NCBI GenBank assembly: GCA_010093995.1
Contig: ML992501.1
Coordinates: 1,793,583-1,857,582 of the forward strand
Source of the DNA: Elsinoe ampelina
Taxonomy: Eukaryota
Reading direction: 5' to 3'
DNA: 64,000 nt
Part shown: positions 2,735 through 61,902 of the stretch, piece by piece
Numbering within the stretch: position 1 is the first letter of the stretch
How the letters are laid out: the number at the start of each line of letters is the position of its first letter
Program-made: the position numbers and the translations under genes
The notes under the pieces: generated by a model
What the model saw: only the letters and a program-made list of their open reading frames with translations
What the model was told of the DNA's origin: nothing
Database searches by the model: none

Positions 2735-3295
2735 GGCCGCGGCTGATGGGAAGCTGCCGCTCCTCCAATTGCTGTAGTGTTGCGCACAATCTGCTCAATA
2801 GGTTCTATCAATTGCGCTGTGAAAGTACGCTGCCGCTAGAATCCTTTGGCGCAAGCGATGCCGTGATGGAAGGGGTTTCGGGGGTCGTGATGTCGTAGCC
2901 TGAGCTTCCAAGCACCAAGGACACATAATTCTAGAGGAGCTCACGCCCGCCCAAAGCCAGGGATGCGGCTGTTTCCGTTCTCGTCCCCACAAATCACGTG
3001 CAAGGCCCAACTTCACTTCCCGGAACTTCACTTTCTTCTACAGACCTTCTTCCACCAGGGCTGGCTCCCACCATATCCTTCATCCAGACATGCTCAATAC
3101 AATCTCTTAAGCTGGCATCTCTACCAGTGCTCTTGGATACACACCTCCACTCCGACTTCGGCGGCACCTTCCTCCTGTGGCACGAGTCCTCCGCAATGAC
3201 GCTTCAAAAGTGTCACAAGCCCCGCGAACACACAGTCAGGGGTATACATTTGTAATCCCCTCACTCAGAGCCCTCCCCATCCGTCACGAGAGACA

Positions 3296-4027: not shown

Positions 4028-4217
4028 TGATTGATGAGGACGACGCTCAAGACTCACGACTGACGACTGATGAATCGATCGTAGCGACCTTAGGATTGAT
4101 TGTCTGTCTTATGAATGCCACGTCTGTCATGCTGTTTTACAACTCATCGTCGCTTTCAGCCCGCGCAATTGTCATTTCTTGTCTGCACGGCCCAGCCACT
4201 TTCCAGATGGAGGTGGT

Positions 4218-5624: not shown

Positions 5625-6282
5625 GGGAAAGTGGTTGCTCGTAAGGTGAAGTCAAACGCCGCGCCAAGGCAGATCACATGACCCAGCCGACCACAGGGTA
5701 GCAGCAGCAGCTCGTCACGTCTGCATTCCTTCCTGCACTCTTTGAAGGCAAGCTTTTAATATCGGATAGGGGTTCATTAATGTCATCCAGTATATACTCG
5801 GAGCAGAGTGTCTCCAGCGCGACCAACCAAAAACAACGACCATCGTCCTGCGACCCAGCACTCTACTCCATCAAATAATTCATAGATCCCCCGAACCCAT
5901 TGCGTAACAATCATAAAGCATCAGAGCCGAATCAGCCTTGTCGAAGCCAAACGCTCGAATAGCAAAAACAGAAGTTCCAGGACAGACAATAGCGCTAAAA
6001 CAAAAACATGCTCTTAACATCATCAGGGTATCCTTTGTTGGGGTATCACAAAATCATTTCTGACTCAAGGGAAAACCCCCTGTTCCGGGCACTCTCGTTG
6101 GGTGCCGGACTGGGTCATCGTCCAAGTCCTGTTCTAAGATTTGGCTTCGTTCGGTTCATTCATCGTTACTTCGTGTTGCTTGCTGTCAGCAACATGTTGA
6201 TGTTGTATGAATAGTGGTCTTCGAATTGAAGGTTCGTCATATCTTCATCGTGAAGACTCATGCGGTCGGTAGGGTAGGGGTC

Positions 6283-8497
6283 CTAGCGGTGGGCGTTTTC
6301 GGAGGTTGCCACAGCCACAAGAGCCTCGAGACGGCCCATATCATTGCGAGGAGGCGGGTGTTGAGCGTAGTGGTGCTGCAGACGAGCGTCGTGACCAGAG
6401 TGTAGGGTGTAGGAAGCACCGTGACTCCCATGGGGATAGTGTGCGTACATGTGAGATCCGGAGTCGGTCCTGACGGGTTCAGGCTTGGCTCTCTCAGCCT
6501 CCATGGCACGGTGCTGCTCTTCAGTCAGGGCTGCACCTGGAGGTCTGACGACCATACCATTGGCTTGAACGATGGCTGGGTGAGCTTCAGTGCCTTGCGA
6601 GGTCGATGGGGTAGGGACGCCATCACTGCTGCCGGATTCCTCAGGAGAGGGGCGATGAGCAATGTTGATCGGCTGGCTGCGAGACGCAGGCCCACCATAC
6701 CACCCCTGACGCCTGTTGCTAACACCCAGGTTCTCATTGCCAGACTCGATGCTTGCTGTAGGCTGGTTTTGTCCGCCCTCGGAAGTGGGCGGGGCTTGCG
6801 GGAAATGGAAAGTGGGCAGCGGCGCTCGAGCACGAGCGACAGCAGGCCTTGGTGGAGTAGTGTTGGTGATGTCAAGACGGTTCAGGTTCTGGTGCAGACT
6901 GGCCTCCCAAACTGAGTTGGAGCGCCTGTCGTCAGGTCCGGGTGCTTTGCCTTCCATAGGGCCAAGGTAAACTGGAGGTCGGCCAGAGTTGTCGATCTGC
7001 ATGGGGCTGGAAGAACGTGCAGCTGCAGGTGCGGCGGAGATGGCGTGGTCGAAGCTCTCGATACCTGGAAGCCTGGTCACCTGACTTGCAGCTGATTGAC
7101 CAGCAGTAGTAGGTCTGGCGTCGTCAGGAGTCTGTGCATATGTCAAACCACTAGTGGCAGGGCGTTGAACATGGGCAGCATATGTGCCAGGATGCCAAGT
7201 GCGCCGTCTCCACTCGAGGTCGGCGTCAGAGTCACGACGAGAGTGCGAGTAGACAGAACTGGTAGGGCTGTGAATGCTGCTCGTGCTTGCGGTGGAGTGG
7301 TGAAAGCCACCAGCAGGAGGGTAGGGGCTGTAGTGCGCGGGTGGGTAAGCGTTGGCATGTCCAGACTGGTATGGACTGGCGACAGATGGAACAGAGAGTC
7401 TCCTCGCAGAAGTCGCGCTCGAAGGTGGGTAGTATGCCGCTCGAGGTGCAATTGAGGGCGACTGCACTGGGAACCGGGGGCTGTTACCTCCAGTCGAGAA
7501 AGTGGCAGAGGTCGGCGTGCTGTAACCGCTAGGAGACTGTGCCGTGTAGTAGGCGTACTGCGTCGGCGCGGCACCTGGCTGTGCGTAAGGGTCGACAGTC
7601 ATTCGACCTGGTGTAATCTGGCTGGCCATGGCCAATGGTGGTGGACGACGCCGGCCATCGTCGGGCATGTTGCTGACGTTCGAGGTCGTCGAAGCAATAC
7701 TTGACGATGACAAATTTCTGCTATGACCTCTGACATGGCCGATACTGCCTCCTGTGCCTGCTCTTGCTCGGCCGCCAGGTGCTCGAACGCGGTCGGTGCG
7801 GATCTGTCTTTGGAACCTGCTGCTGGTGGCAGCGAGAGAATCACCAGGTATTTCTTCGTTGACGTGGACAGTCTGAGCATGTTGACGCAGGTTGTCGAGT
7901 CGAGAGAAGCGGCGAGAGCAGTGACATTGGAATGGCCTTTCGCCAGTATGCTTCCTTTCGAGTTGGTCAGCAATTATCCCATGATCCTGGTTGCAGAGTG
8001 ACATACCTGATATGACGGGCGAGATGCTCACTGCGAGTGAAGCTGAGGTTGCAAGGTGGAAAGTCGGTGCAGAAGAACCTCTGTCCCTTCTTCTTCTTCC
8101 TTGGCTTCGAATCGCTAGCATTACTGTCATTTTCCGAGTCCATCTCGCCGTCATCTGCCATTTCTACATCCTCGGAATCCTCCTTTTGCTGTCCAGACCG
8201 GGTGGTGACGGCATCATTGTCAGACTTGTCCGCATCGGGTGTGTTGGCAATATCGGAGGGTGAAAAAGGCGTGGTGGGTAGCGGTCGTTGACCTGGGACA
8301 CCACCAAAGTCGTCCTTGGTGGGGGTGGAGACTTCGGCGGTGTCGACGGTCTTGTCGTCTACGGTCGGAGTTGCTGCCGGTCGACTTTGCTCAATACGCT
8401 TGGGAGAGCTCATGTTCATGAGCCTGGGTGTCGAAGGGTGCGTCGGCGGTGAGAAATGTGAGTTGTGCGGATGGTACGACGTGGTGGTCGCAGCCAT
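6283..8497 (-). CDS. nsdC: C2H2 transcription factor, NsdC/Usv1 type
   Basis: [61 protein letters not shown], joined across intron 7955-8006 (gtatgt...gctgac...aag). C-terminal [11 protein letters not shown] motif. Confidence 0.9.
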
Positions 8498-10417: not shown

Positions 10418-12305
10418 CTAAGACTTCGCCTCAGTCGTATAGCTAACAACCGCATCTCGCACCTTCACACGGTGAACCAAATGAGCATTACCCGTGTCCT
10501 CCACCCCGGTAGCCTCCGACAGCACATTCCCCGCTTCATCATGAGTACGATCCCACTCCGCCACCTCAGCATTCGGGACCCTCTTGAGCTGATGCACCAC
10601 ACTTCCATCCTTGTTGACTACAGTAAGTGTGCGAATAGTGTACTTGCGGATACGAGGCAGCAAATGCACCCATACGTAGTAGTAGATGCCCATACTAACC
10701 ATAAGACCAATGCCGACGACGATGTAAGTGCCATACCAGAACGAGTAGTCCCCGCCGTCCTCGGGCGGGACCCAAGGCATGATCAGGATGAAGAGACAGA
10801 CTAGCGCCGAGAAGATGAGAGCGGTATGCCATGCCTGGAATTGTGCTGGCGGTAGACCTTCCTTCTTGCGGTGACGGCGGAGAGCATAGATACCGACGAC
10901 CATGAGAAAGATGAAGATGGAGTCTGGATAGGATCGGAGGTCAACGAGGAAGTCGAATGCGTCTCCGAATGGCAGGGCGAGAATTACGATCATAGTCATG
11001 AGCCACTTGAGCAGGATCGGGGCGAAGGGGGTGCCGAAGGGTTTGGTGGAAGCCCATAGATGTGGCCATGGGAGGACACCCTGTCTAGCACACTCGCGGA
11101 TTGAACGAGTGGCTCCGATGATGACGGCCATGATGTTGCCGGCTGCACTCACCGCGACGAGAGCGGGCAGACCTCTAGCAGCTCTCGTTCCAAAGACAGC
11201 TTCGAAGAAGAGTGCCGCAGCCAGCTCACCAGACTCCCGAATCTGAGCGGCTGGTACGGCAGCGAAGTAAGCAACGTTGGCTAGGACGTAGAGGATGAAA
11301 ACAATAATGAGCGAAATGGGTGCAACCTTCTTGAGTAGCGGAAACGAGTTCTTGATCTCGTTGGTGACGTTGAAGGCATTTGTGTATCCCTGGTAGGCGA
11401 AATTGATGCTGACCAGTGCATTGACGAGATCGTTCCCATTGTTGGTGATGCCATCGAAAGAATTTTGAAAGTTCGCACGAGGTTCTGCAACACTTGTGCC
11501 GCCTCCCAAGACGACGAAGCCGGTGATGACGATGAAGAGGAGAATGATCAACTTGACCGCCGAGATGAGGTTCATGAGGCGCATCGACCACTTTGTCGAG
11601 ATCAGGCACAGAAAAGCCAGGAAAGTGTATGATGCCATAGCGAGGCCCTTGTTCTCCCATTCTGTTGCGGTGTGTCCAGCGGCGCGGAAGATGTATTCTG
11701 CAAGCACGACAGCGTTACTGCTCGAAAAGGAGAAGACGACGGTGAAGAAGGCGTATGTGACTGGGAAGAGGAAGGCAGGTCTTGGAAATGCCTGCTCCAA
11801 GTATGCGACTTGACCGCCAGACCGATTCGGGAAGAGCGATGCATACTCTAGGTAAATCGCAAGTGTTGCTAAGGTATGATCAATGTCGAGGAACAAGACA
11901 ATATTCGTGGAAGCCTACCAGCGGCGATGACAAACCCGAAGATCCAGTATAGTATTGACAGACCGACCGAGTCGAGGGCTCGTAGGATTGATCCGGCTGT
12001 GTTGATGATCAGTACTATGTGGTGCACACATGTCAAGCCGTGTTGTACTCACGAGTACTGAAGACACCAGTTCCCACCATCTGAGATACATTCAGAAACA
12101 GGATGCCAGCCCATCCCACGTGATAGCCCAGAGGACTGACTGTCTCGACGGGCGCTCCGTTCGCATCTTGATAGACCGCGACGCCATTGACAATAGTCTC
12201 ATCTCCGATTTGGGCGTTCTTCTCCCTGACTTCTGTCGCGCTCACGTTGTCGCTCGAATCTCCCCAGAAGAGGTGCTTGAGATGCGATGCCGAAACCGAA
12301 GCCAT
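10418..12305 (-). CDS. MUP1: High-affinity methionine permease (APC family, MUP1-like)
   Basis: APVETVSPLGYHVGW, MVGTGVFSTPGSIL and YLEYASLFPNRSGGQVAYLEQAFPRP motifs, many hydrophobic helices, and two introns (~12.00-12.05 kb and ~11.86-11.91 kb). Confidence 0.88.
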
Positions 12306-39252: not shown

Positions 39253-41273
39253 TCACAGCTTCGCCTCCCTCCCGACGCCCTCTCTTGCTTCAATCACAGC
39301 ACCCAACCACCCCTCTCCAACATCCTCCCCCTCTTCCACGTCCATAACCCATTTTACCACACCCGACCGATGCGCTCTCACCTCCAGCTCCATCTTCATC
39401 TGTCTCACAACAAACAACGTCTCACCTTCGCTGACCTCATCACCTCCATCAACAAGGACTTCGACCAGCTTTCCAGCGAAGGGAATTGGCACGTGAGTTC
39501 TGTTTCTCACATCTGCTCGAGGTCTCGACGAAGCAGATGCTGCAGCCGAGGCGGACATGGAAGTCTGCTGTATGGCGAGTCGATAAGGTTTCGACTCGGA
39601 AGTGCTGCCTGACGTGGGCGTGACGGCAACTTCGGCCGAGAGAGAAGAGGGAAAGTCGTTCTTGAGGAGCTTGGTGAGGTGTAGGTGGTAGGACTGGGGA
39701 TCCGTGGCTGATTTCCCGAGTGGGTCCAATGTGACGCTCCAGGCGTCGTCTTTGCGGAAGAGAAGTTGGGATGAAGATGGTACGGACGTAGATATCGAGG
39801 CGCTAGAGGTCTGGAAAAGGTCGGATCCGAACTTCTGGGCGTTGGAGGGGCGAGTGTTAGCGAGGAGGGCGGCTTGTTGAGATTCTAACCAGGTAGTTGT
39901 ACATTTGCCAGCGACGAAGTCAGGGTGAGCGATGATAGCTTTAAGGATCGGTATGTTCGTCTCTATGCCGGTGATACGAGTGTCTTCCAGTGCCCGTCTT
40001 GCCTTCTGGACCGCTGCAGACCAGCTAGAAGCATTGATTATTAGCTTCGCGATGAGGCTGTCAAAGTCCGCAGTCACTGATGCTGATATCCCATTGACGA
40101 TGTTCGTGTCACATCGCACGCCATTGCCAGACGGGAAGTGAGCAGATTGTATCTTGCCAACACTGAGCGACCAATTCTTCGTAGGATCCTCGGCCGTGAT
40201 GCGAAGCTGAATCGAATGTTGAGGTGGCGGCATCTCCGGGCTGCCGGCTATGTGAGACAGCCCGCTCTGTTCCAGGGACGCACCTTGTGCGATTTGCAAT
40301 TGTGCTCTCAAAATGTCTGTCGAGCAAATCGATTCGGTCACTGTGTGCTCAACCTGCAGCCGAGGATTGATTTCCAGAAAGTAGAAGTCTGAAGTGTCTG
40401 GGTTGACCAGGAACTCAAAGGTTCCCAACGACCTGTATTGAATGTGCTTTGCCATTCGTAGAGCTGATTCGATAACCCTACCGACCAGCTTCCGATCCTG
40501 TAGCGAGCTTGGTGCCAGTTCAACCACCTTCTGGTATCGCCTCTGAATGCTACACTCTCGCTCCCACATGTGAGTGATATTGCCCTGATGATCACCAACA
40601 ATTTGGACTTCGATGTGTCGGTAGCCCGATATGGCGGCCTTTTCGACAAAGACTTGTCTAGATGGACTTTCCTCTATAGCTCGAGCAAGTAACCCGTCCA
40701 AAGAAGCTGGGTCTTGTACCAAGCGGATGCCACGCCCACCACCACCGTCGACAGCTTTGATCATGATAGGGAAGCCAGACTGTTGAGCAAAGGATTTGAC
40801 CACCGCAGGGTCATTCGTCGGTGTTGTAAGCGCTGGCAGTACTGGTACACCACATTCTTCCGCCAATCGTCGAGCTTGCAGCTTGTCTCCAGTACGATCC
40901 AGGATCTCAGTACCAGGCCCGATTACCATGACATTCACATCTGCCAGTCTTTTGGCAAACTCAGCCGATTCGGACAGGAAGCCATATCCAGGATGAACTG
41001 CATCGATGGAATGCTTCTGAACCAGCTTGAGCAACTCGTCAATGTCGAGATATGACCCAGGCCCGGTTAGCTCGACTGCATGGTCTGCATTGTAGGCGTG
41101 AGAGACATCTTCTCCGGTGTACAAAGCTACAGTCTCGATCTCGAGCTCGCGTGCAGCCGAGATTATTCTTGTCGCAATCTCTCCTCTGGACACGGTCAGT
41201 TGTCGTGAAGCATATCTGGCTTGAATGATCACCTGTTAGCCACCAGAAGTCTTTCGATAGGACGTGGTGACAT
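39253..41273 (-). CDS. Biotin carboxylase + biotin-carrier subunit of an acyl-CoA carboxylase, with PTS1 (AKL)
   Basis: MSPRPIERLLVANR|GEIA (intron 41186-41232), HPGYGFLSE, KAVDGGGGRGIR, RECSIQRRYQK, FLEINPRLQVEH, biotinylation motif QMKME, and C-terminal EAKL. Confidence 0.93.
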
Positions 41274-41411
41274 TGCAGCTTCCGATGGTGACAGCGAATC
41301 AGTTCTCGTCAGACATTCCTCATGGTTGTTGTAACATCCCCAACACGCTGACTGTAAGAGCAGTGCAGTGCACACGAGGAGCGAGGTCGAACAAACCCCA
41401 CTTCAAAGATG

Positions 41412-41431
41412 CCTCGGCTGAACGACCGAGG
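41412..41431. promoter_or_regulatory. Inverted FarA/FarB-type sites CCTCGG-N8-CCGAGG in a bidirectional promoter
   Basis: CCTCGG at 41412-41417 and CCGAGG at 41426-41431, near the middle of the 265-bp gap between the two carboxylase genes. Confidence 0.6.
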
Positions 41432-41538
41432 GGGAGATCCACGTTTAGTGAACCGACGACATCTCTACTTATCCATCTAACATGTTGCAATCCTGTACTT
41501 CATAGTCACTGGCGATATAGAAAATACGAGTTACAGTC

Positions 41539-43314
41539 ATGGCCAAAGACGACGACCCTTCCGACCCCCAAGTCGCCACCAACCCCACCACCACAGCCCA
41601 ATCCCGCGCCACCCAAATCTCCGCCCACATCGCCCCCTTTCCACCAGCAACAGTCAACACCCGCCGCCGCCGCCGCAGCAAAGCCTCCAAAGACGACCCA
41701 CCGGCCGACCACTCCGACATCCTCAACCAACTACACCAGCTGCGCACAATCGCCAAAACCCCCAACCCGCACCACCCAGGCTACTCCCGCCAGAAAGCCT
41801 CGGGCAAGCTGTGGGTGCGCGAACGAGTGACGCGCCTCTTCGACGCCGGCTCCTTCCGCGAAGTCGGCTCCGCGAGCGGGGACGTGACATGGCGCTCTCT
41901 TTCCGCGACGAAAGAAGAACCCGTCGACTTTGTCCCCAGCAACAACGTGCAAGGCTACGGCCGGCTCCGTGGGCGAAAGGTGCTGTTCACCGCCGATGAC
42001 TTCACCCTGCGCGCGGGGCACGCCGACGGCGCCATCGGTGCCAAGACCGTGTACATGGAGAAATTGGCGCTGGCGCTCAAGTTGCCCATGGTGAAGCTTG
42101 TGGACGGGAGTAGTGGTGGGGGATCGGTGAGTTCGATACGCGCGATGGGGTATAGCTATATTCCGCCGTTGGAGAGTTTCGAGTATGTGATGAAGCAGCT
42201 GAATCAGGGCATTCCGAACCTGGGGGCGGTATTGGGACCGGCGATCGGGTTGGGGGCTGCGAGGGTGGTGAGCTGTCATTTCTCGGTCATGGCGGCGGAC
42301 GTCGGGGCTTTGTTTAATGCGGGTCCGAAGGTGGTGGCCGGGGCGACGTTTGAGGAGGGACTGACGTTCAGGGATTTGGGCGGGCCGATGATGCATTGCA
42401 CGAACGGGACTATCGATAATCTGGCGAGGGATGAGGAGGAGTGCTTTGAGCAAATCAGGACGGTATTGGGATACCTGCCTGATTCGGGAGAGAAACTACC
42501 ACCAACAGTGGACGGGGAGGATGATGAGGATAGATTGAGCCCAGAATTGCGGGCGGCGATACCTCGCAAGCGTGAGAGGATGTTTGAGCCCAGGAAAATT
42601 ATCACCACTGTTGTCGACAAAGGCTCATTCTTCGAAATTGGTCGCCTTTGGGGGACGACAGTGATTGTGGGTCTTGCAAGACTAGCTGGTAGGCCAGTCG
42701 GAATCGTTGCCAACAACCCTGAGACGAATGCTGGAGCACTTGATGCAGCTGGATCCCAGAAGCTGACTCGACATCTGAAGTTCTTGGACATCTTCAACAT
42801 ACCTCTACTCCAATTCGTGGATGTTCCTGGCTACGCAGTGGGCACAGTAGCAGAGCGGACCGCCACGATGAGGTGGGGCGTCGAGTTGGCAAAGACCTAC
42901 TACGCCACTACCATGCCAATCTTCAGTGTCATCTTGAGGAGAGTCTACGGTGTAGCAGGTGGCGTCATGCTGGACTGTCGGGACCCCAGATTACGAGTGG
43001 CGTGGCCATCAGGCGAGTGGGGCTCATTGCCGTTGGATGGAGGTATTGAAGCAGGCCATGCAGCCGAGCTGAAGAAGATCGAGAAAGAGAAAGGAGAACA
43101 GGCCCGTAAGGACAGGTATAAGGAGCTGGACGACGAGTACAGGCGGCTCATGAGTCCGATCCGAACAGCGAATGCATTTGGAGTGGAGGAGATCATCGAC
43201 CCAGCGAGGACGAGACCGCTAGTATGCGAGTGGCTGAAGCACACCTACGATAATCTGCTGCCGATCAGAGTCCAGCAGCGGATAGCTGGGAAGCTGCAGC
43301 CTGTGTTCTCGTAA
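41539..43314 (+). CDS. Carboxyltransferase (beta) subunit of an acyl-CoA carboxylase
   Basis: GKLWVRERVTRLFD, DDFTLRAGHADG, EDLGG-like RDLGGPMMH, GLARLAGRPVGIVAN, FVDVPGYAVG and EEIIDPARTR motifs. N-terminal RATQISAHI resembles a PTS2. Confidence 0.92.
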   Translation: MAKDDDPSDPQVATNPTTTAQSRATQISAHIAPFPPATVNTRRRRRSKASKDDPPADHSDILNQLHQLRTIAKTPNPHHPGYSRQKASGKLWVRERVTRLFDAGSFREVGSASGDVTWRSLSATKEEPVDFVPSNNVQGYGRLRGRKVLFTADDFTLRAGHADGAIGAKTVYMEKLALALKLPMVKLVDGSSGGGSVSSIRAMGYSYIPPLESFEYVMKQLNQGIPNLGAVLGPAIGLGAARVVSCHFSVMAADVGALFNAGPKVVAGATFEEGLTFRDLGGPMMHCTNGTIDNLARDEEECFEQIRTVLGYLPDSGEKLPPTVDGEDDEDRLSPELRAAIPRKRERMFEPRKIITTVVDKGSFFEIGRLWGTTVIVGLARLAGRPVGIVANNPETNAGALDAAGSQKLTRHLKFLDIFNIPLLQFVDVPGYAVGTVAERTATMRWGVELAKTYYATTMPIFSVILRRVYGVAGGVMLDCRDPRLRVAWPSGEWGSLPLDGGIEAGHAAELKKIEKEKGEQARKDRYKELDDEYRRLMSPIRTANAFGVEEIIDPARTRPLVCEWLKHTYDNLLPIRVQQRIAGKLQPVFS

Positions 43315-43369
43315 GGGCAGGGTTATACATTTAGCCAACAGAGCATGCTCTACCCTACTTGAAAAGGTC

Positions 43370-44191
43370 CTACCAGCACAGTTCGAAGAATGGAACTTGC
43401 GGGCTGACGAGCCACCAATCACGGTGTCTTCGAGAAGACCTTTTGGCACAAGTCCTACATGATTGATCACTACCAGAATGGACACTTCAAGCTCCAATGA
43501 CTGATCTCGCCGCTGGCTGTGGCAACTCTTCTGGTAGGAGATCACACTGGAGGAGGCACATGAAGGACAAGCACTCGGCAACCTACGAGTACTTGCTCAA
43601 GTCGAATGAGACGCTGACAGCACTTCTCACTGCTGCGGCGACGACGACGGCTATTTGATGTAGGCGAGCTGGTAGTAACAGTATGGGATAACTATCAGTG
43701 TTGACACCGCTTATCACTGTGGCGGTAATATGAGAGATCGAGGTGCTAGGCAGCTGTCAGTCATGGCATTGAATTACTACCAGCATTGATATCGCTCGTC
43801 ACGGGAGCCAGTGATTGGAAAGATCGAAATGCTGGTGACCTGGTAGTACTAGCATGAGTCAGTTACCAGCTTTGAGGTCGATCAACACTGTAGTGGTGAG
43901 TTAGGAGAAGGAGGTGCTAGGCAGCTGGTAGTACTCGCACGAGACAACTACCAGCATTGATGACGATTTCCACTGGAGCAGCGATTTGAGAGGCGGATAT
44001 GCTGGTAATCTGGTAGTAACATCACGGGGTTGAAATTGGTGCTGGTAGTAAATGACGTCTGCTGGGCAATTGGACCTCGTCAGGCTGGACTGCAGAAGAG
44101 TCATGGTCGATCTTGGGCCATAGCATATACTACCAGGAATGTGGTCTCTGGACACTCTCCGGATGCAATGTAAGTTTCAAGGTCCTGGTAG
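43370..44191. repeat. Cluster of CTACCAG/CTGGTAG heptamers, including a degenerate ~170-bp duplication
   Basis: Twelve exact copies at 43370, 43470, 43531, 43669, 43777, 43840, 43925, 43948, 44010, 44042, 44130 and 44185. The blocks GAGGTGCTAGGCAGCTG, ACTACCAGCATTGAT and ATGCTGGT..CTGGTAGTA repeat at ~43740 and ~43911. Confidence 0.8.
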
Positions 44192-44282
44192 GACTGATGT
44201 CAAGAACACCAGGGGCTTGAGCAAGCGTCGCGTCTTACTAAGAGCATGTCGGTATAGAAGGGGTAAGAATCGGCTTGTAGAT

Positions 44283-44748
44283 GTTGAGCGTCCTCAGGCC
44301 TGAGATAGATCCTCAATTCTCACGGTTTTGCGAAGGTATCCAGAGACAATCCTATCGTACGTGAACGACCAGGTCCGAAGTAACGTCTCCAACTTCATGG
44401 CTTCATACAAGTTCCTGTGACTGCTTGGTACACCACGCCACATTCTATAGCTTGGACCTGGTCCAACAGAGGGCTTGAGTTTGCCCTGCCATCAGTTCCG
44501 GCCGGAAAACTCCTCTCAATTCTGAACGCACAACTCCTCAGCCTATTAGATGTCAATGTTTCTGAGACACTCGTCTGCTTCGTCTGCTTGACAGATCTCA
44601 CATGAGTCAAGCGGCCTCATATTCAATCTTGATTTCGATCGAAGGACTTCCCTTACTTTTCCATCCCACATGTCCTGCTATCTGTGGGAGAAATTCCGAT
44701 CGGAAATCTGTTGACTTTCCAGGCCTGAGAAAAGGCCTCGATTCCTCA
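44283..44748 (-). repeat. Reverse-oriented copies of the ~47-bp motif found at 46.7-47.1 kb
   Basis: The reverse complement of ~44690-44745 (gaatcgaggccttttctcaggcctggaaagtcaacagatttccgatcggaa) aligns with 46898-46947 and 47058-47095. Partial copies lie at ~44283-44317 and ~44496-44521. Confidence 0.75.
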
Positions 44749-45258
44749 TCTGTGCTACAATCTCAGACAGACCAACTCGTAATGAAGGCCTGGTAATACG
44801 ATCTTGAACATGCCGCTGTGTGGCACACCCATGGGAGTCCCAATACCTCTCGTTGATTACCGAGAGGAATCTCGCTCAGGACACAGCCGTGATTGGCAGA
44901 GAGGCTCGTAAAGCCCCGACAGCATTGTCAGTGATGCTGATAGTCTCAAAGCGAAATCTGTCAGCTTTGCTCTGTGTTCATTGACCATCGAAGGTGCATG
45001 AGCGTCACAAATTTGACCAGGTCGGAAAGCAGATCTCAAGAAATCATTGGCAATGCATCGATTAGATATGAAGAGGATCTCAATGCTGCTCGAGTAGGAT
45101 GCTGATCTAGTACGACAATGCTCCAGAGTGCTCTCATGCCATCACTACCAGCTTCCCTCACGCCGCCGCTGCACCCAGAGCTGTCAGTCCTGGTAGGAAA
45201 CCTCATTTTGTTACTACCAGCGTGCTGACCAGCGATAGTCACCGTCGAATCCGCCCCC

Positions 45259-46522
45259 TCAGATCCTACCCTTCGACCACTTGCGAAGATCCTCTGGCAC
45301 CCAATCGAGCGCCTCGCCGTCTTCGACCATGCCCTTGTAGACCTCCAAATGCTTGGTCTTGAAATGCTTCCTCATGTTCTGTGGATCGTTGAAGTCCTGC
45401 TCGCACTCATCGATCGCGACGAACCAGCATGGAACGCGGATATTGAGGTGAACTGCGTTGTAGTGCCTCATCATGTCCTTCTTGCTCATCCATTTGGTAT
45501 CACAGCCGGCGTGCTTGCAAGGTAGGTACTTGCCTCTCGCTTTCTCCTTCGCATGCCCGTCGTCCATATGCTTCTGCTTCATAGCTTGGAAGGCGGGGTC
45601 GTCAGCATGCTTGGCCTTATAGCGTGTTTGGCGGTCTTTGTCGGACTTGCGCTTCCTTGCAATTTTCTCCGCAAGATACGATGCATTCTTCTTGTCAAGA
45701 CCTTCGTAGCCGTTGGGGTCAAATAGAGCGCTGTGGGTGCAAAGACCATCGTATTCACGCTGAGTGAGATCGAAAGACACCAGGTGACCCATGTTGTAGT
45801 CCTTGTCCTTGGAATGCATGCCGCCAAACCTAAAGGTCAACTGAGCTTCCATGGACTTGTTGAGCAGGCGGAGAAGTGGTTCGTCGTCGCCATGAGGAAT
45901 ATCGTGCTTGTAGAGGACGCCGATATGTGTGATCTCGTAACCATCCTTGAGGGCCTCGAGAACCTTGACCGCAGTGCCGCGCTGCTGGACTGTCTGGTAG
46001 ACGTAGCCTCGTCTACCCAAGCCGGCCAGACCATGGACCTTGGAAGTACCCGTGACACCACCAATGTAAGCCTTATACCTCTAGCCTTTCTTCTCAAGGA
46101 TGACTGCGTAGCCACCCCAACCATCCCCGAGATTGTCAGGGTCCCAATCAAATTCCTCCGAGTTGGGGCTGAGGCCATCGCAGATCCATTTCGAGTTATC
46201 ATCCTGTTCTCGATGTCAGCACGCATCATGGAAGGTGACATTGAGTACTGACCTCTGAACGCTTCAAGCCCACGGGTCCGTTGAAGCCAGGCATTGAAGG
46301 CAATTGCTTGAAGAAAGTGAGTTCCGGGGGAGAGGTGGATTTGAGGTGGTCGATGACACCCGGGCTGACTTGTAGGTTGTCGATCATCTCGAAGGCCATT
46401 TCGACCTGGTCCTGTTCACCTAGATATTGCTCGAAGAAAATGTAAGGGCGGGTAGTCGTGGTGATGACTGAATGGCATCTTGCCTCGAAGAATTTTTGAT
46501 CTGCGTCACTGATGGGCTCCAT
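45259..46522 (-). pseudogene. GIY-YIG-like nuclease / C2H2 zinc-finger protein (~404 aa) with one in-frame TAG
   Basis: Exon 1 46253-46522, intron 46204-46252, exon 2 45259-46203. Reads WGGYAVILEKKG*RYKAYIGG...GLGRRGYVY...MEAQLTFRFGGMHSKDKDYN, followed by two C2H2 fingers. The stop is at 46081-46083. Confidence 0.7.
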
Positions 46523-46723
46523 GGTGGTCAAGTGAATGAGATGAGAGGCGAAAGGTATGATGATGGATCGTCCATATGAAGCGTGTGAAGTAGAAGAGGT
46601 GAACTTGGGGGAGAGTTGAGGTAAGGTCAACGCGTATGCCTCGAGCGCGCCTTCCTTGAGTGGCAAGGCTCACTTCGGAACCTCACATCCACATCAAGAC
46701 ATCGCATTCACCATAGATGAGAA

Positions 46724-47122
46724 ATTGAGCCTATATCCCAGGCCTGATTAGGAGAGTCTTCTGATCGGAGATTGAGGCTGTATTTCAGGCCTGAGAAGAG
46801 GAGAGTTTTCTGATCGGAAAAGAATGTAGTGAATATCAGGTTCCGTTTGCACGTGATTCGACTAATATCTCCCGAAAGACGATAGGAGATTTGCGAAATT
46901 CGAGGCGTTTCTTCAGGCCTGAGAAAAAGAGGATGTTCCGATCGGGAATTGAGATCTGGTTCAGACTGAGAGCATTTTTCTGGTCGTAAAAGAATATGGT
47001 AGATTTCAGGCCGTGATTCGAGCAATATCCCCTCAAAGACCATGGCGGAATTGCGAAATTTGAGGCCTTTCTTCAGGCCTGAGAAAAGTCAAGGGATTGA
47101 GACCTCCTTTCCGGCCGGAAAA
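46724..47122 (+). repeat. Higher-order tandem array of a ~47-bp motif (ATTGAG..TTCAGGCCTGAGA..TTCTGATCGGA)
   Basis: Units start near 46724, 46771, 46898, 46948, 47058 and 47096. Two related spacers (AAGAAT...CGTGATTCGA..AATATC.CC..AAAGAC...TTGCGAA) separate the pairs. Confidence 0.85.
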
Positions 47123-47330
47123 CCTCTGAACCTCCCCTAAGAACTGACGGCGAGGTAGATCAATAAGAGGAGAGCAGATGGTAAAGGTATACGTATAAGA
47201 CTCACACGATGCACCGTAGCCATGGCGAATGGACTGAGAATTGCATACCGATTCCATCTATACCATTCTTGACCTACACCTTGTGTCCTACCAGCCCCAA
47301 CCCACTCGACAGCCATCTCTACCAGCTCCC

Positions 47331-50098
47331 CTACACAACGCCGAGGAGCTTCTTCGCGATCAGGTAGCAACTGATACCAAATGCCAAGAGTCCTGATGTG
47401 ATGCACCAGAACCAAGTGAGGTCGTTCTCATACGCTTGTCCTGGTACCCAACTATTTGGCTGTCAGCGATCTCTCTGAGATAGCGAGAAGGTACTCACCA
47501 ATTCATTCCCCATATGCCAGTTATTAAGTTCACTTCGTCTGCGTCAGTATAGAGTCGCAAAGGCCTTTCAACGATATCGAATGAAGGAGTGCAATGGGAG
47601 AAGGGGAGTGAGAAAGTGGCTTGTTAAGGGGACAAACTTACTGGGCAGTACTATAGTACCGAGAACAGTGAGCTTGTTGAGGACGTCGTTGGTCTGCTCC
47701 GCACGCTCGGAGGTTCGAATGTTGATCTGGGCCAAGTAATTCGTGTGTGCTCTGCTGAGAAGGCTGCGGACTGTTAGTACTCCAGTCCGAAAGGGGCTGG
47801 ACGGTCGACTTACTTCTCGTAGTGGGACAAGTTCCCCGTCATGGTAACGATGTGGTCCTGGATGTCGCCAAGATACAATCCGATCTCGCTACGTGGTGCC
47901 ACCTCCCAGGCCGAAGTACAGCGTTTTGCAAAGCCTTTTATGACATCTGCTTTGTTGCCCAGTAGCCGATAAAGCGACATGACCTTTTGGCGACAAGTAC
48001 CGATACGTCGTAGCATTCTACCACCTTCATCTTTGTCCGAGGCTCTCTGGCTCTTGCTGTCGTCTTCGAGTATCTTCTTGTTGCTCTCCCTCTTCTCCTT
48101 GTCTTCATCCTTGATGCTGATGTTGTGAAGCGCCAAGATATCCTCGTCGATATTGTCCACTTGTTCCTCGACTTGCTGAACCAGCGGGGCGTATGCATCT
48201 GTAATGTCATCAATAATGGCGTACGAGATCCAGTCCGCAGACGGTGACATGTAATCATTGAGCTGTCGAATACGACGACGGACGTTTGCGGGGTGAGGAG
48301 TCTCACTGAAGTGGAAGCTCAAGATACCGTCCCTATAGACGATGACGTATATGTTCACTGGTTCCATGTAGTCAACGCTGTCCTTGTCTTGCTCAAAAGA
48401 ACGATAGTTGACGAAGTAGTAGTTCTGGAATAGCTCCACCTTCTCACGCGGCTCCTGTACCAGGATATCTTCCACTGTCAGTTGGTGAATGCCAAATGTC
48501 TTGGCTAGAATCTTCATCTCTGCTTCGGTGGGCGAGAGAACATCCAACCAGAAGGTGGGACGAGGTCCGAAGCGCTTTGGCTTGCGTGGTGTTGCTGGAG
48601 CGCATTGATGCTTCCCGTTCGGCGTCATGGAGCCGGAATGGTCTTGTGATCGAGACTTCTCCATCTGTGCGCTGGCAAGGGACGGTCGACCTCGTCCGAG
48701 TTCAGGTGCAGTGATTGTGGCTTCTTTACCCGGAGATGGTATGGCAGATTCATGGTCCTCTTCACTTTCGCTGGAATCGCTAAGCTCGGGTGGACTCGGT
48801 CGGAAGAGATCGTCGAAGGTAGCGCCGAATTGACAAAGCTCACTGATAGTCCGGCTGTGGATGGTCGCGTCGAAGTTCTCGTTGAAGTAGGTATATCTAT
48901 ACGGATCTTCTTCCTCTTCGCGATGCCAGGCCTGCTTGATGTTCCTTAGTCGGCCACCAACCATGACAGGCTCAGTCATCTTCTTCGCTCGGATCTGCTC
49001 AGCGTTACGCTCTTCTTTTTCTTCATGTGACCACTCTTCAAGAACAGATAGATCTGGCCATTGCCTCCTACGGCGACGACGCGGGCTTCGCCGACTCTCT
49101 TGACGTCCATGGAAATCTTCGTCTCCTATCTCTGACATGCCTGGGCCACCTGGGTAGCAGACATCCATCTCGGCAAGATCGTGGATTGTGCGAGATCTCT
49201 TTGGCGATTGAGGGACAGATCGCGGGCGATGCTCGTCTACGCCGTCCCCATCAATGTCAATGATAGCGTCCTGGCTAGCATGAGGATGGTCTCGTGAGAA
49301 TTCTTCGGCGATCATGACATCGTCAAGAGATCCTAGTTTGGGAGAGCCTGGCATCGAGGGTGGATTGTTGACATCGAACTCTTCATCACTGTTATCGGTA
49401 TACCCCTTCAAGTTCCGCTTCCTGCTTTCTGGAGATGGATAGGAATTGCGCTTCGGATCGAAAAACGAAGTACCGTAGCCTCCTGTACCACTGCGTGACG
49501 TTGTTGGCCTGGACTTTGATTTGGACGCCAACAGCGGTGTTCGATCTCCATTATCGTCAGAATCTTCCTCAGGAACACCACCAGTCACTTGGTTAAGCCT
49601 GGATTTGTTCGGACTCGAAGCGATCGTAGGCTGGCTTGTACGATTCTTCTGAGATCGTTGGGGTATACTGGCCCTCGATGCGCTGAAGAGGCTGTTCGAG
49701 TTGCTCCTGCGGCGAGATCTGAACGGGAGCTGTTCTCTGTGGTCTAACAAAGCCTCACTTTCCAGACTAGTATTGCTTCGGTTGTCGTCCTTGAGTCGAT
49801 AGAAGCTGGTGGATGCAGCAGTCGGTCTTGGACCGTCAAGCAGACTCGGCCTGCGATCGTGCTCGTCGTTGTCGTTGACAGTAGATTCCGAGGGTGCGGC
49901 AAAGCTTTGTCTCCTGTTCTTCCTCTTGCGACCACCTCGATGCTTCTTCTTCTTCGCCGGCATGCTCTCCGTATGACCACCAGCCTGCCCAGGGTTTGTC
50001 GGATTCGGTCCTGGTCGGGTCGGAGTTGAAGATTGGTCTATAGCATTCTGCGAGCTCGTCACCGGAGGGCCGGCAGTTTTGGGTGTGCGGGGCTCCAT
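47331..50098 (-). CDS. CorA-family magnesium transporter (Alr1/Mnr2-like)
   Basis: FWLDVLSPTEAEM, FGIHQLTVEDI and LYLGDIQDHIVTM motifs. Three 3' introns give NKLTVLGTIVLPMNLITGIWGMNCWVPG...LLGVV-stop, which includes the GMN motif. Confidence 0.93.
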
Positions 50099-56562: not shown

Positions 56563-59500
56563 AGGGCTCTTTAGCCCGCGTGACAGTCGTTGAACAGCTG
56601 GGCGTGACAACTGCCCTTTTGGTACGCCAAGCCGGGCACTTGTCTAGTTAATCCGCAGGGATAATCCCGGCTGAAAGTATCTGAATATTAAACTTAGCAA
56701 ATTCGCTGTTGTCTATTACGTCGTTAGTATAGAAGAATTAAAGCTTAAAAAAGGTATTATTACTTTTTATAGCACATAAGTGCTCTCGTAAAGGTGCTAC
56801 TCTAGCCTCTCTTAGCTTCTTCTACCTCTTCCTCTAACGCTGCCGCCGTCGCCGCCGCGGAGCGCTGACTTATATATAAGGTAATTACCTCTATTACTTC
56901 TTTAAGTAGACTATCGACTCGTAGCTAGAGAAGAAGTTTAGGCCTCTTTTGCAGTAGGTGATCGAGGTTGCTAAGGCCATGGAGGAGAGGCATGCTAACG
57001 GAGGATAAGGTTTATAAAGGCTAAGTTTATTAAGCTAGTATAGCTACTAGAGATCTACTGGATCTAGTAGAGTAATAGGTGTAAGCTATTACTAGAGAAG
57101 GCCTTAGTAATTACTCTCGCGAGGCTAAGTTAGCCGTACTAGTAGTATACTTACTATAACTATTTTAGTCGATCTACCGGCTATCTCTTCTCCGTCTTTA
57201 CTAATGTAATTATATACGTTAAGGTAACCTTCGGCTAGCTATTAGACTAGTATCCTTGGCTAGATAATTAATAGTAGTTAGTGGCCTTTAGTAAGGTAGT
57301 AGAGCGAGCTAGAGAGCGGTCGAATATTTAGGGGTTTATCGATAGTACCTTTAGAGGCTTTAAACAGCCTAGTATTAATTAGCAAGTTGCCTATTCTAGT
57401 TACTATAAAGGCTATAGCGCTAAGTACTAAGGGGTAGTCACGCTAGATAGTATCGTCTCTTCCCTCTATAGCCTCTTTAATAGCAAGAATAACAACTAGG
57501 GCATGTATAATTACTTAGTAGTAGCCGAGAAGGTATAGGCGCTTAATCGAGAGTATAGCCGAGGCTAGAGGTTGTACCTTTATAGTAATATAGCCTACTA
57601 CCTATCGACTAGTATTATAGCTTCTTACTACTATAAGGACGGCTAGCAGTATCTATTAACTCGAGAAAGGGCTTTTAATAAGACGCTATTAAGAGTTAGA
57701 ATATCTATCGAGCATGTCTTTAGCCTTACCTAATCCTTATAGACTTACACTGTATTTACTAAAGGCCTTTACCTCGGCTAACAACTAGTTAGTGCCTTCT
57801 ACTGCACGTCGGTGCTTCTTATAAACCTCTATACTTACTATCGTAGTTATAGTACAATGTCTAGTTGCTTCGTTATAACTCTACTAACTATATAATAATA
57901 TTTAATACTAGATAAATAGGTAGTAAAGAGGTAAAAGAGATTTTACAAGTGTAAAAGGTAGCGGAGAGTTAAGGCTTAGTAGGTAGCTATAATTACGCTA
58001 ATTACTCTATCTAATTGTAACTTCTTTATAATTATTAATTTCACTTAGTTTAAGTTGTTTCTTTTCCTATTCGAGTCTCTACTATCGGTTATCTATCTCT
58101 ATACTTCCTTAAAGTACTCTAGCGGAAATTAATAAAGTAATTACGGATTAACAACTATGCTAAGTTTATGTTAATTGCTTCTTCCTACCTGCGTTTCTCC
58201 TCTTATCCCTTACCTTAGACTAGGGGGTCGACTTAGCCTTAACTAGTATAATATTACTAGTGGTTATTAGACTACTCTATACTCTTTACATATCTCTCGG
58301 AGCATGCTAAGGATAGCCTCCTACGAGTTTAACACGTTTCGGAGTTCTCTTTAAAGAGTTCTATTGTTATCCTTTAATCGCCTTACCTTGTCTAATATAC
58401 TCTAAAGAGAGGAGGTATTAGCTGCTATACAATTAGTATCAGTAGTAAACTACGCTATACTAGCATTAAGAAACATAGTAGTATAGCCCCTTAGCCTTAC
58501 TAGAGTAGCACGGGACGTAGATGTACTCGATTATACGTCGGTAGTAGTAGTAGAGTGTGTAATAAGGTCGGTAGAGGTAGGTTATAAGCGCTATGTTAAG
58601 GCTTAGCTATTACTCTCGAGAGGGAAGGTACCCTCTTTAGCCTCCTCTTCTTACTCCTTAGCATTAATCTCCTCTATAATCTTGGCATCTAGATTACTGT
58701 CTTAAAGCTATAGCTCGTCGGAACTGTTAAAGGAGCTATAGTAGTTACGTATATAACCTATTATAGCGTCCTCTATGTTAAGCTACTCTATCTACAAGTC
58801 CTAGGCCTTAGTAGTTACCCTTTAAGTAGCCTTAGCCTTATTAGCTAAGATAGAGTTCCACTAGTTGTTAATAAAGCTATCTAGCTACCGCTTAACCTTA
58901 GAGTTATCCTTATAGCTACTAGTATTATCCCTCCGAGTAGCACGCTACTTAAGCTAGTTATAAATCGATATAACTAGCTTACGGCTAATAGTCTTATACT
59001 ACTCCCTTGTCGCTTTATACTAGGCTATTATAAGGGCCCTCTACTACTCGTTCTGTAACTTAGTAGCGTAGATAACGCTTCTAAGGGAATAGGCAATAGT
59101 AAGTAACCTTATAAAGCGCTTATTAGTCTAATCTTATAGCGGCCGGAGTACTCTAGGGAGTATATTACTAGCAGTTAATAAAACTAACTTATTACGTAAA
59201 GAACAAGAACTAGTGTAAATACAACTCTCTAATGTAGTACTACTACGTATATCTCTCTCTTACATATCTCTTCTTACTCTTCTACTATCTCTTCTATAGT
59301 TTTATAACAATAGTAAGGCTACTAGAGTGGCTAACAGCCGTGCTAGAGGGTTTATAGTCAACGACGAGGTTGATAACGCATTGCTCGGCGTGCTTGGAGG
59401 ATTAGAAGGAGTCGGTATTATATATAGTTAAAAGGGCTTAAAGTAACTTTAATCTTTATAAAGAGTAACACTAAGGCTTAAAGTCATTAATATTTCGAGC

Positions 59501-59665
59501 TAAACCGCTTCAAGTAACGATAGATTAACTGTTCAGCCATGACAGTTGACTGTCACGGTTGAACAGCTGCGGATGATCGTCACGAACGAGCCTTTCCAAC
59601 CTGGGAAGGTGTACAGTCAAAAAAGAGGTGTTCAACACCAGCTGTCACGCGGGCTAAAGAGCCCT
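56563..59665. mobile_element. RIP-mutated PIF/Harbinger-related (PHIS) DNA transposon, full length
   Basis: 24-bp perfect TIR AGGGCTCTTTAGCCCGCGTGACAG (56563-56586 and 59642-59665), flanked by AAT on both sides. The interior is AT-rich and TpA-rich. A relic transposase reads I*GFIDST at 57326-57349. Confidence 0.92.
56780..57900 (+). pseudogene. Relic DDE_Tnp_4-type transposase (boundaries approximate)
   Basis: Reversing RIP changes gives IWGFIDGTFRGF.RPG..QQVAYSG..KGHGAKYQGVVTPDGIVSSL.GPF.GKNND, then YGD.AY and ISIEHVFG. Many TAG/TAA stops. Confidence 0.8.
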
Positions 59666-59993
59666 AATGATGTGATTGGCCGTGATTGGCGCGGGCAGAC
59701 GTGAAGTGGTTCCCGCTCTCCGCCATCTTCGTTCCCACCCACCCCTCCTTCATGTTCAGATGATCTCTTTCATGGACGTCCACGTGCCTGTTCGACCTGC
59801 TTGACGCGCCAAGTATAGCATTCCGCTCCGCCTGCACCGGATTGCCTGACGGCCATTTCCGACCGAGGATCTTCGAGGCGCACGCCTTTTTGTCGGCACA
59901 GTGTTGCCTGACGTTCTTCTATGCGAGTGTCTCAGCTCAACCTCGTTCTCGGCATCGCTTATACGATCTGTCTTTCCTGTTGAAACGCTCGTC

Positions 59994-61902
59994 ATGAACT
60001 TCGGACAACAGCTTTCCCACCTCCACACGGAGGGATTTGGCCGACGTACTTCTGGGGATTTCTCGAGTCCGCAAATGGGCCCTGGTGAGATGCCGCCAAG
60101 CGGGGCGCCAAACGGACACATGCCCATGGTCATACCCGGACAAGCTAGAGGAATGCAGACTTATGGTTCCGGGTTCTCCGGAGCAAGAAGTCCACCAAAG
60201 CAAAAGAGTAGGTCGCTGTGTCGCAAACGGGTAGAAGCAAGGCTGACAACCGCAGGCACATCGCATGTTCCCTGCAAGTTCTTTCCCATAGGGCAGTGTC
60301 AGGCCGGCGCTGCATGTCAGTTCTCTCACGACCTCGACCCCACCAGGCAGAATGCGCCATGCAAATACTTCGCAAGGGTACGTTGTGCGCTTGACCGCCT
60401 ATATCTTTTGCTGACAGATCACGTAGGGAAGTTGCAAATTTGGTCAAGGGTGTGCTCTTATGCACGTTCTACCAGACGGTAGAGTGACGAATAGACCGAT
60501 AAGAGGTGGGCATGGCTTCAATCGCAGAGGTCAACACAACGGGCACATGTACCAGAACAGCCAAACATCGCCATTGACCATCAATCCCCACGACCCAAGC
60601 ACGTCTGCAGATCCGATGGCATATCAAGGTCAAGATCCTTCTTTCGCGTACACACATCAGCCGACTTCACCAGTCTTCAAGTCGGAAATATACCCTGGAG
60701 ACGGCTCACCAACTTTTGGATCACCACAGAACGACTACCTAAACCCTGTTCGATCTCCGCCGCGACCAGGTCTGAGTGCTCGCGATGCGCCAATGCCGAG
60801 TTCATGGGATAGTCAAGGTATCTCACAGGCTGCTCGACATGGTCCCTATGCTGCTTCGGTCCCAGGTCGATTTGGCCTCGAGTCGCCGCCTTCATCATAT
60901 CCCAACAAGGCTCAAATGGGTAACACTGCTCTTCGTGACATTCGAGATTCTGCATTTGGCGATACGGCGAATCTGGATGGCGTTCTGCATGGCCTCGGCT
61001 CATCGCCACGAGAGAATGAGCCACTCACCTTCTCAAAACGTCCTCTGCATTCCGAGCGATTCGCGCGATCAAGACCTTTTCTCTCATCTTCCTTGGACGT
61101 CCGGAATACGCAATTCCTCACCAATCTCGACAATTCGGATCTGGACGGAGGAGACTCGGACGACGGTGCCGGGGAGGATCTGTTACCTTCATCGCTCCAT
61201 GACTTGCTTCCTACTGACAGACCACGTCGTTCGTCGAAAAGCGGCTACCCTGAAGACGAGAACAACAGCCCCTGGACTTCGGCACCACGACGTATTTCTA
61301 GCAATGGTGGTAATGGAGAGTTCAAGACGGGATCGTTATCCCCGCATTCTGCTTCGCCATCGAGGTATAGCGCGATGTGGGCAGCTCGCTCCTCATCGAA
61401 ACAGGAGTCCGAAAGCGCGCTGACAACTACATTGGGACATGTCGGATCGCCTCTGCGTCCATCAAATCTACGCACAAGCAGCACACATACCTCGTCGCCG
61501 CCCGATGCCAACCCTGCTGCTCTTAGCATGCTGACATCTCAGCTCAAGCGTGCGAAGCTTAATGACAGCGCTTCAGGGTCACCCACGGCCAGTACTTCGT
61601 ACCTGTCTCCTTCTGCCTCTGGAACATCTCTATCTTCTCGGATTGGACCTACATTAAACGGAAGACATGGTCAAGGACTCGGCGCAGGGGAGCGGAGTCT
61701 GAGCGGCAATCTCAGCAACACACTCGGCCGTGAAAAGATCGAAGAGGAGAGTATATTCTCCATGGAGGAGGAGACCGGAGGTCTGGAAGGCAGCGAAGCA
61801 GAGCCGGGTGTCCAGCAGAGAAGTGGCAGCTCCGGGACCGCTTGGGGCATGGGCTCACCGACTGGCGCCGTTGGTGTCATCGGAAGTCAAAGGACGAAGT
61901 AG
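59994..61902 (+). CDS. Tandem CCCH zinc-finger protein (Lee1/Scp3-like)
   Basis: HVPCKFFPIGQCQAGAACQFSH and APCKYFAR|GSCKFGQGCALMH, with two introns (~60208-60255 and ~60378-60427) and an S/P-rich remainder. Confidence 0.85.

Follow-up and report, generated by a model that had tools for sequence, protein, structure and literature searches.

In a 64-kb window of the Elsinoe ampelina genome (64,000 nucleotides of contig ML992501.1, positions 1,793,583 to 1,857,582), a carboxyltransferase gene and a CorA gene are separated by an island of about 4 kb that holds a nuclease gene together with arrays of two repeated motifs, called here A and B (Table 1; all positions are those of the window). Here we describe this gene, the family to which it appears to belong and the intron context in which its relatives are found, and we propose that it derives from a homing-intron nuclease that came to lie at the 3′ end of CorA.

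A transcribed nuclease gene with one in-frame stop codon

The nuclease gene lies on the minus strand and comprises 404 codons plus a stop (1,215 nt), from an ATG at 46522 to a stop at 45259. An earlier note, made from the sequence alone, had proposed a spliced minus-strand gene of about 404 codons, and the codon count and an intron joint in an RNA run both bear this out; the motifs that it listed, GGY-x13-YIG, GLGRR, E-x16-YN and two C2H2-like fingers, are all present as well. The RNA evidence consists of four public runs, all at least 99% identical to the window, whose GT-AG joints indicate a probable origin from RNA. The 49-nt intron of the nuclease gene appears as a spliced joint in one of these four runs. 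The protein encoded by exon 1 is identical to the start of the public record P0002, and the key residues of exon 2 are, in full-length numbering, Y122, Y136, G138, R155, E209 and C245/H247. In run X3 a single contig spans CorA, the right motif A array and the nuclease gene, a span that does not in itself demonstrate a single transcript. The nuclease gene is transcribed.

At codon 131 the reading frame is interrupted by a TAG, which is unchanged, unspliced and gapless in both contigs that cover it (runs X3 and X8). The nuclease activity of this copy, with its in-frame stop, is putative. The public Elsinoe ampelina protein equals the product of the island gene minus a 22-residue gap, and the underlying public gene model contains a 66-nt intron that skips the stop together with the YIG motif; this intron was rejected, both covering contigs being unspliced there. 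Repeat-induced point mutation (RIP) as the source of the stop was also rejected, the island being without a RIP signature. No second nuclease copy was found within the window, and neither profile search nor DNA alignment revealed a decayed one in the left half of the island.

Table 1. Coordinates of the features of the island and its flanking genes in the window
Feature	Position	Strand	Basis or remark
Nuclease exon 1 (90 codons)	46253..46522	-	homologous to the family N-terminal extension; profile match E 1.6e-9
49-nt GT-AG intron in the nuclease gene	46204..46252	-	spliced joint, run X3
Nuclease exon 2	45259..46203	-	GIY-YIG domain (predicted), long helix, two C2H2 fingers
In-frame TAG, codon 131	46081..46083	-	between the two Tyr motifs; sole lesion seen
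CorA functional 3′ end (stop 47335-47333), upstream direct-repeat copy	47312..47343	-	alignment
Displaced/duplicated copy: last four codons of CorA plus 19 nt of 3′ untranslated region (UTR)	45138..45168	-	27/32 columns identical
Branch point CTGAC plus CAG acceptor, flush with the duplicated segment	45169..45187	-	possible 3′ end of a former intron
Inferred cassette between the direct repeats (2,143 bp)	45169..47311	-	length inside the family intron range
Motif A array, right	46716..47125	.	4 full and 1 degenerate units of ~47 bp, upstream of the nuclease ATG
Motif A, left	44283..44752	.	1 full unit and 2 half units; inverted, diverged counterpart of the right array
Motif B array	43654..44200	.	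units of ~85 bp that each contain CTGGTAG and CTACCAG facing one another
62-nt GT-AG intron between the CorA stop and the motif A array (CorA 3′-UTR or nuclease 5′-UTR)	47144..47205	-	joint in run X3
Carboxyltransferase gene (PF01039), flanking	41539..43314	+	Pfam
CorA gene (PF01544), flanking	47333..50098	-	Pfam, RNA joints

A predicted GIY-YIG fold in a family without a Pfam match

The structure model covers exon 2, with X read at the stop, and has a mean predicted local distance difference test score (pLDDT) of 83. Its best VIA-align match among 48,161 chains is I-TevI (1ln0; Z 8.9, root-mean-square deviation (rmsd) 2.5, 90 of 92 residues), and further matches are UvrC (Z 6.5) and EndoII (Z 5.6); for the family member P0040 the best match is again I-TevI 1ln0 (Z 7.4, rmsd 2.2, 88 residues aligned). 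VIA-align values of Z near 7-8 may reflect a common arrangement, and we take the match as GIY-YIG because the whole domain is covered, several GIY-YIG proteins are listed together and the catalytic residues agree. The N-terminal domain of the window nuclease is thus predicted to have the GIY-YIG fold that the earlier note had claimed for it. Other searches returned mainly the fingers: Foldseek gave no match of the window protein at E<=0.001 and only zinc fingers were returned, PDB sequence searches also gave zinc fingers only, and the 25 families listed by Pfam included zinc fingers and no GIY-YIG family for the nuclease domain, the C2H2 fingers matching zf-C2H2_4 with an E value of 6.5e-4, which is below the Pfam cut-off. 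In the ESM Atlas, queried with P0002, an Ascomycota zinc-finger cluster scored 0.91 and GIY-YIG clusters scored below 0.9, values that serve as leads only.

A word-indexed protein search found 2 relatives, against 465 representatives at E<=0.001 with a profile-free HMMER search. The catalytic residues of GIY-YIG enzymes are, in order, Tyr, Tyr, Arg, Glu and Asn. In the family alignment of 114 sequences, with conservation counted over 112 homologues, the two Tyr are kept in 111 each, a Gly in 111, the Arg in 109 and the Glu in 112, and all of them are present in the window gene. The five catalytic residues that had been read into the sequence are therefore upheld for both Tyr, Arg and Glu and not for the Asn, since the Asn of 'YN' is N in 4 of the 112 homologues and G in 70. 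The end of the I-TevI chain (residue 93) aligns to position 156 of the model, and Cys153 and His155, conserved in 104 and 110 of 112 homologues, stand there. Judging from these ends of the aligned range, Cys-x-His probably occupies the place of the I-TevI Asn as a family variant. By homology, then, the window gene belongs to a fungal family whose nuclease domain is without a Pfam match. Pattern searches of viral contigs gave no confirmed relative (0 of 30 matches in one set and 0 of 7 in another).

Relatives lie in predicted spliceosomal introns of conserved genes

Where do the other members of the family reside? The context sample, one metagenome scan, comprises 65 loci with 66 elements. The nuclease was found to split conserved genes that lie on the same strand and are recognised by Pfam as aconitase, carbamoyl-phosphate synthase, pyruvate carboxylase, clathrin heavy chain, Hsp70, DEAD-box helicase, copper amine oxidase, a MutS protein and a HEAT-repeat protein, the last presumably the splicing factor SF3B1. 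For 24 of the 66 elements we mapped a donor, a branch point and an acceptor with in-frame rejoining of the host gene, these introns being predicted from DNA; the 24 comprise a set of 20 (16 distinct, with 4 near-identical pairs) and 4 more. All 20 tallied introns have a GT donor, a CTRAY branch and an [ACT]AG acceptor, and they measure 1,385-2,224 bp. Two more elements can be fitted by eye with a 1-nt micro-exon; by hand count, about 23 others have host-gene evidence that falls short of full mapping and about 17 have none, mostly on short contigs or fragments. Self-matches misled the automatic junction search, whose results count only for elements with a reference from another locus.

Insertion sites recur, and for three clathrin and two pyruvate carboxylase sites the empty allele is present in other loci. 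In the nuclease tree, copies group by site, with 28 changes against a shuffled mean of 52.5 (reached in 0/200 shuffles), and 26 of the 49 full-length, non-duplicate copies are free of stop and frameshift. A possible homing footprint in the exons beside occupied sites, with greater change on the downstream side, is seen at one clathrin site (15/15 upstream against 11-12/15 downstream), and at the other four there is little or no asymmetry. Leaving this footprint aside, the context has the profile of homing introns, from which we infer cutting and homing, and it points to a family whose usual place is within spliceosomal introns of conserved nuclear genes, as fungal counterparts of the mirusvirus spliceosomal homing introns termed 'shintrons'.

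Shintrons were defined in mirusviruses in a report which remarks that eukaryote genomes apparently lack equivalents (PMC12768974). Shintrons share with the fungal family a GIY-YIG gene within a GT-AG intron of a conserved gene, specificity for the target gene and inferred homing (PMC12768974). Unlike shintrons, the fungal elements have cellular nuclear fungal genes as hosts, their proteins carry an N-terminal extension and C2H2 fingers, and viral contigs yielded no relative. We regard the family as a variant of shintrons, a placement based on gene context and homology; the window copy is not itself classed as a shintron because it lies outside any spliced host intron or coding intron. Literature searches aimed at such introns returned only the mirusvirus report as relevant, and broader ones listed no report of a nuclear homing-intron family in fungi, most subscription papers being outside their reach.

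Several loci show further arrangements. At L012 (1065-1119) a nuclease-free intron of 55 nt lies exactly at the pyruvate carboxylase site where L045 has a nuclease-bearing intron of 2,255 nt (839-3093), and L039 has a third pyruvate carboxylase intron 4 nt off this site. In the DEAD-box helicase gene of L034 (9570-11203) and L036 (9597-11207) just one G separates the nuclease intron from another, short intron downstream, an arrangement that looks like a 1-nt micro-exon or a twin intron. One clathrin heavy chain gene (L035) holds two different nuclease introns (2601-4365 and 5545-6973), and at the first clathrin site L035 has a candidate short nuclease-free intron of which the donor is seen and the acceptor is unconfirmed. 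The nuclease intron in the HEAT-repeat gene of L017 (9711-10995) appears in a shortened version in L059 (9711-10608). The same carbamoyl-phosphate synthase position is occupied in L055 (9130-10834) and in L020 and L032, that is, in a stand-alone gene and in a glutaminase-bearing multi-domain gene, which suggests homing between paralogues. L008 has a 63-bp tandem duplication at the 3′ end of the intron (11038-11170), with no AG at the expected acceptor, and two pyruvate carboxylase introns at different sites (L023 9570-9710 and L039 9440-9490) have a short repeated word in common in their 5′ part, with 9 copies in L023.

A CorA-end repeat delimits an inferred cassette

The window nuclease lies downstream of the CorA stop, and none of the donor-acceptor pairs around it rebuilds a frame over 87 codons. 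Beyond the nuclease gene stands a second, imperfect copy of the CorA end in direct orientation. With a score of 41 against at most 29 in the background, no match in the window is better than this repeat, and its flanks, once the shared 7-mer is excluded, agree at 20 of 26 positions, against at most 15 at 29 other sites. We consider it a candidate target duplication on the strength of this alignment. The displaced copy is flush with a branch point and acceptor, and the two copies delimit the inferred cassette.

The same place behind CorA is taken in Elsinoe fawcettii, where the CorA model runs into a nuclease that is 63% identical, with intact catalytic residues, versus about 85-89% identity for the neighbour genes in the comparison of the two species. 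In two E. australis records and in Myriangium duriaei the accession of the carboxyltransferase gene stands directly next to that of CorA; going by gene numbering and annotation, E. fawcettii has an occupied CorA site, and E. australis and Myriangium have an empty one. In E. batatas the flanking genes are 45 gene numbers apart, and a 68%-identical model of 163 aa (P0004) stands about 600 gene numbers off. The four RNA runs contain no joint corresponding to an empty site. The window gene contains an intron of its own as well as an insertion of about 38 residues. In the comparison of nuclease sequences, the window copy emerges as a divergent free-standing outlier of the family.

Motif arrays are local to the island

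With at most one mismatch, CAGGCCTGA has six sites in the 64 kb, all of them in the island (four right, two left), and the exact TCCGATCGGA occurs once, at 44695. A matrix built from the four right copies of motif A finds matches in the opposite orientation at 44288 (23.7 bits) and 44713 (24.8 bits), and nothing at or above 14 bits in the window outside the island. The left region aligns to the inverted right array with a score of 110.5, reached by 0/200 shuffles. This region contains a spliced minus-strand intron (44543-44601; joint in run X7). A spliced minus-strand transcript with no evident reading frame was observed there (44415-44664), and the contigs of three runs also terminate near 44340-44380. 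Motif B (CTGGTAG/CTACCAG) has 18 sites in the 4-kb island versus 13 in the other 60 kb, with a period of about 85 bp; its first unit (43654-43675) resembles the CorA 3′ end in inverted orientation, and the top 7-mer count of the left half of the island is matched by 0/200 shuffles.

A dispersed array of the exact motif A core or of CTGGTAGT was found in 0 of the 65 homologous loci, and a significantly repeated 7-mer was found in only 1 of 17 mapped family introns. Searching Rfam with the island gave one match, at chance level (E 0.63). The inverted arrays described in the earlier note are thus real, inverted and restricted to the island, with fewer units than the roughly six counted on the right side; the idea that they are subterminal repeats that move with the gene was not sustained, and the motif B array and the 27/32 CorA-end direct repeat had been overlooked. 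Two of the three results that the note had named as speaking against its proposal were obtained in part, namely homologues without the motifs and a gene that lies behind CorA in E. fawcettii too. Because arrays surround no homologous locus, we regard the motif A arrays as neither family termini nor transposon ends, so far as sequence comparison can tell. They are probably local products of duplication and inversion at a break-prone site, possibly kept as predicted binding sites of the fingers.

Comparison with other mobile endonucleases

Free-standing endonuclease genes behind a host gene whose 3′ end is present twice have precedents in fungi. Mobile endonuclease open reading frames (mORFs) with a duplicated C-terminus are described for the mitochondrial genes atp6 of Allomyces, atp9 of Glomus and atp6 and cox2 of Phlebia, and some of them are GIY-YIG (PMC3630166, PMC4019555). 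The window copy shares this arrangement and differs from the mitochondrial mORFs in being nuclear, in a duplicate of only 32 bp, in its spliceosomal acceptor end and in that its mobility is conjectural. Closer in its nuclear setting are the WHO elements of Torulaspora, LAGLIDADG endonucleases that replace half of FBA1 and bear signs of an arms race (bioRxiv 10.64898/2026.08.13.744650). The same source describes, as in the window copy, a nuclear endonuclease with a zinc finger that lies downstream of, and co-directional with, a host gene duplicated at its 3′ end (bioRxiv 10.64898/2026.08.13.744650). In contrast to WHO, the window copy is GIY-YIG, only four codons are duplicated, and neither amino-acid divergence at the target site nor a longer relic was found; about 250 queries for a longer WHO-like relic of CorA or carboxyltransferase gave only two weak matches (E 0.007 and 0.017). 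At the protein level the nearest likeness is to I-TevI, from the td group I intron of phage T4 (PDB 1ln0), which is the best structural match and also combines an N-terminal GIY-YIG domain with a C-terminal DNA-binding part, whereas the window protein is only 11-16% identical to it, probably has Cys-x-His for Asn, carries C2H2 fingers and belongs to a spliceosomal rather than a group I context.

Proposed origin of the CorA-end nuclease

We propose that a homing-intron nuclease cassette settled at the 3′ end of CorA with a short duplication, lived there as a free-standing gene and was recently inactivated in this genome, the arrays being local; we give this reading a probability of roughly 0.6. 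Homing requires only a nuclease and host break repair, and for this reason no transposase is expected at the locus. In the proposed mechanism, a family nuclease would, once two strains have mated, cut the allele that lacks the intron, and the break would be repaired from the allele that has it, so that the intron is copied, the intron context being observed and the cutting and homing being what it would imply. One cassette would have come to lie at the very 3′ end of CorA before E. ampelina and E. fawcettii diverged, and the last codons would have been duplicated so that CorA keeps an intact end while a decayed copy stays beyond the nuclease; the duplication itself is observed, and the order of these events is conjectural. 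Placed behind a stop codon, the cassette would need no splicing. It would then have persisted as a free-standing, fast-evolving gene, gained an intron of its own and finally acquired one nonsense mutation here. The selfish origin suspected from the beginning for the nuclease gene is supported.

A number of points weigh against this proposal. At the locus, splicing of the cassette and any enclosing joint are unseen in the four runs, there is no good donor at the inferred 5′ end (TGTCGAG), and the repeat and its acceptor were identified after the fact, with five acceptor-like signals in the 1.95 kb downstream. No excess amino-acid change was found in the last 330 residues of CorA or carboxyltransferase in nuclease-bearing species. 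The empty sites rest on accession order and not on DNA, a single gain with vertical descent would account for the species pattern just as well, and the very long branch (1.7) that carries the window gene and its E. fawcettii partner cannot be assigned to any intron site. Within the family, full two-sided mapping is missing for 42 of the 66 elements, the acceptor of L008 is not canonical, and the clustering by site counts near-identical copies on a quick tree in which two rows are mislabelled (the first element of L035; L039 and L045, which are sites 4 nt apart). Cleavage, homing and polymorphism are hypothetical here.

Among other explanations, it is unlikely that the gene is a domesticated one, a former homing nuclease kept in the Elsinoe clade for DNA binding or repair with motif A as its operator and lately lost here, in analogy to HO, which derives from WHO elements. 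Such a history would agree with the same place behind CorA and the kept catalytic residues in E. ampelina and E. fawcettii, and with the gene's own spliced intron, its insertion, its transcription and its long stem branch; however, the nuclease has diverged to 63% identity where its neighbours keep about 85-89%, a nonsense codon stands in this copy, the E. batatas relative P0004 is a short, displaced model, and the whole pattern resembles decay and turnover more than kept function. A self-mobile or non-autonomous DNA element, with the inverted motif A arrays as ends bound by the zinc fingers, is improbable: the arrays do stand, inverted, on both sides of the gene, but they are absent from the 65 homologous loci, no repeat longer than 6 bp lies beside or outside them, the window has no second copy, and the index of compared stretches contains no look-alike for either array. 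Furthermore, GIY-YIG enzymes are not transposases. We see just as little likelihood in a nuclease that is a mere passenger in a repeat-prone intergenic region, with the arrays and the 32-bp repeat as local duplications that have nothing to do with it or as remnants of some other, unrelated small element. This would account for motif B on both flanks and inside the motif A bracket, for a left half without nuclease remnant and for the motif B core contained in the CorA-end repeat, yet no other motif B site has flanks that match nearly as well as those of this repeat, and the acceptor lies exactly at its edge.

The chance that the copy is not dead at all is slimmer still. Here editing or read-through of the UAG during the sexual stage would restrict the nuclease to the time at which homing is of use to it. 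Consistent with this, the stop is the single lesion in a transcribed gene with no frameshift and no RIP signature, 13 different residues are tolerated at the codon-131 column, and the homologues L002, L030, L031, L035 and L052 have TAG at conserved Trp positions. Sexual-stage adenosine-to-inosine (A-to-I) editing prefers UAG in filamentous ascomycetes and is reported from Sordariomycetes and Pyronema, but was not found in Aspergillus or Botrytis (PMC11156358). Trp occurs at the codon-131 column in 0 of 112 homologues, the TAG is unchanged in both covering contigs (which, however, drop rare variants), there is no unusual structure at the TAG (z 0.0), and TAG, TGA and TAA stops are near equal in the homologues (9, 9 and 7). 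The TAG codons of the homologues, at two conserved Trp positions in several loci and the only lesion seen in L031 and in the second L035 element, could reflect RIP, chance or an editing switch.

How do new spliceosomal introns arise and spread? This is a long-standing question, and a route driven by nucleases in the nuclear genes of cells opens it to tests; the 55-nt intron at the site of the 2,255-nt nuclease intron is what a cycle of invasion, fixation and decay would leave. The family also explains mis-fused public gene models (Ssb1, cpa2, CorA) and offers a new source of long-site nucleases, and the broken, atypical window copy may link intron-borne homing with homing that duplicates a 3′ end. 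We hold only tentatively, and think it rather doubtful, that the locus records a transition from a homing intron to a free-standing cassette homing at a gene 3′ end by duplication, as a GIY-YIG parallel to the WHO elements, with arrays of finger sites for self-control, and that this class is widespread in fungal nuclear genomes.

Other observations in the window

The public model of the neighbouring CorA gene (P0276) ends early, at GMNW, and the RNA joints give its full end, LLGVV (47333-47500). On the other side the island adjoins a divergent gene pair for biotin carboxylase and carboxyltransferase (39253-43314). Further away, positions 57000-60000 are AT-rich (37% GC) and possibly represent a RIP-decayed repeat.

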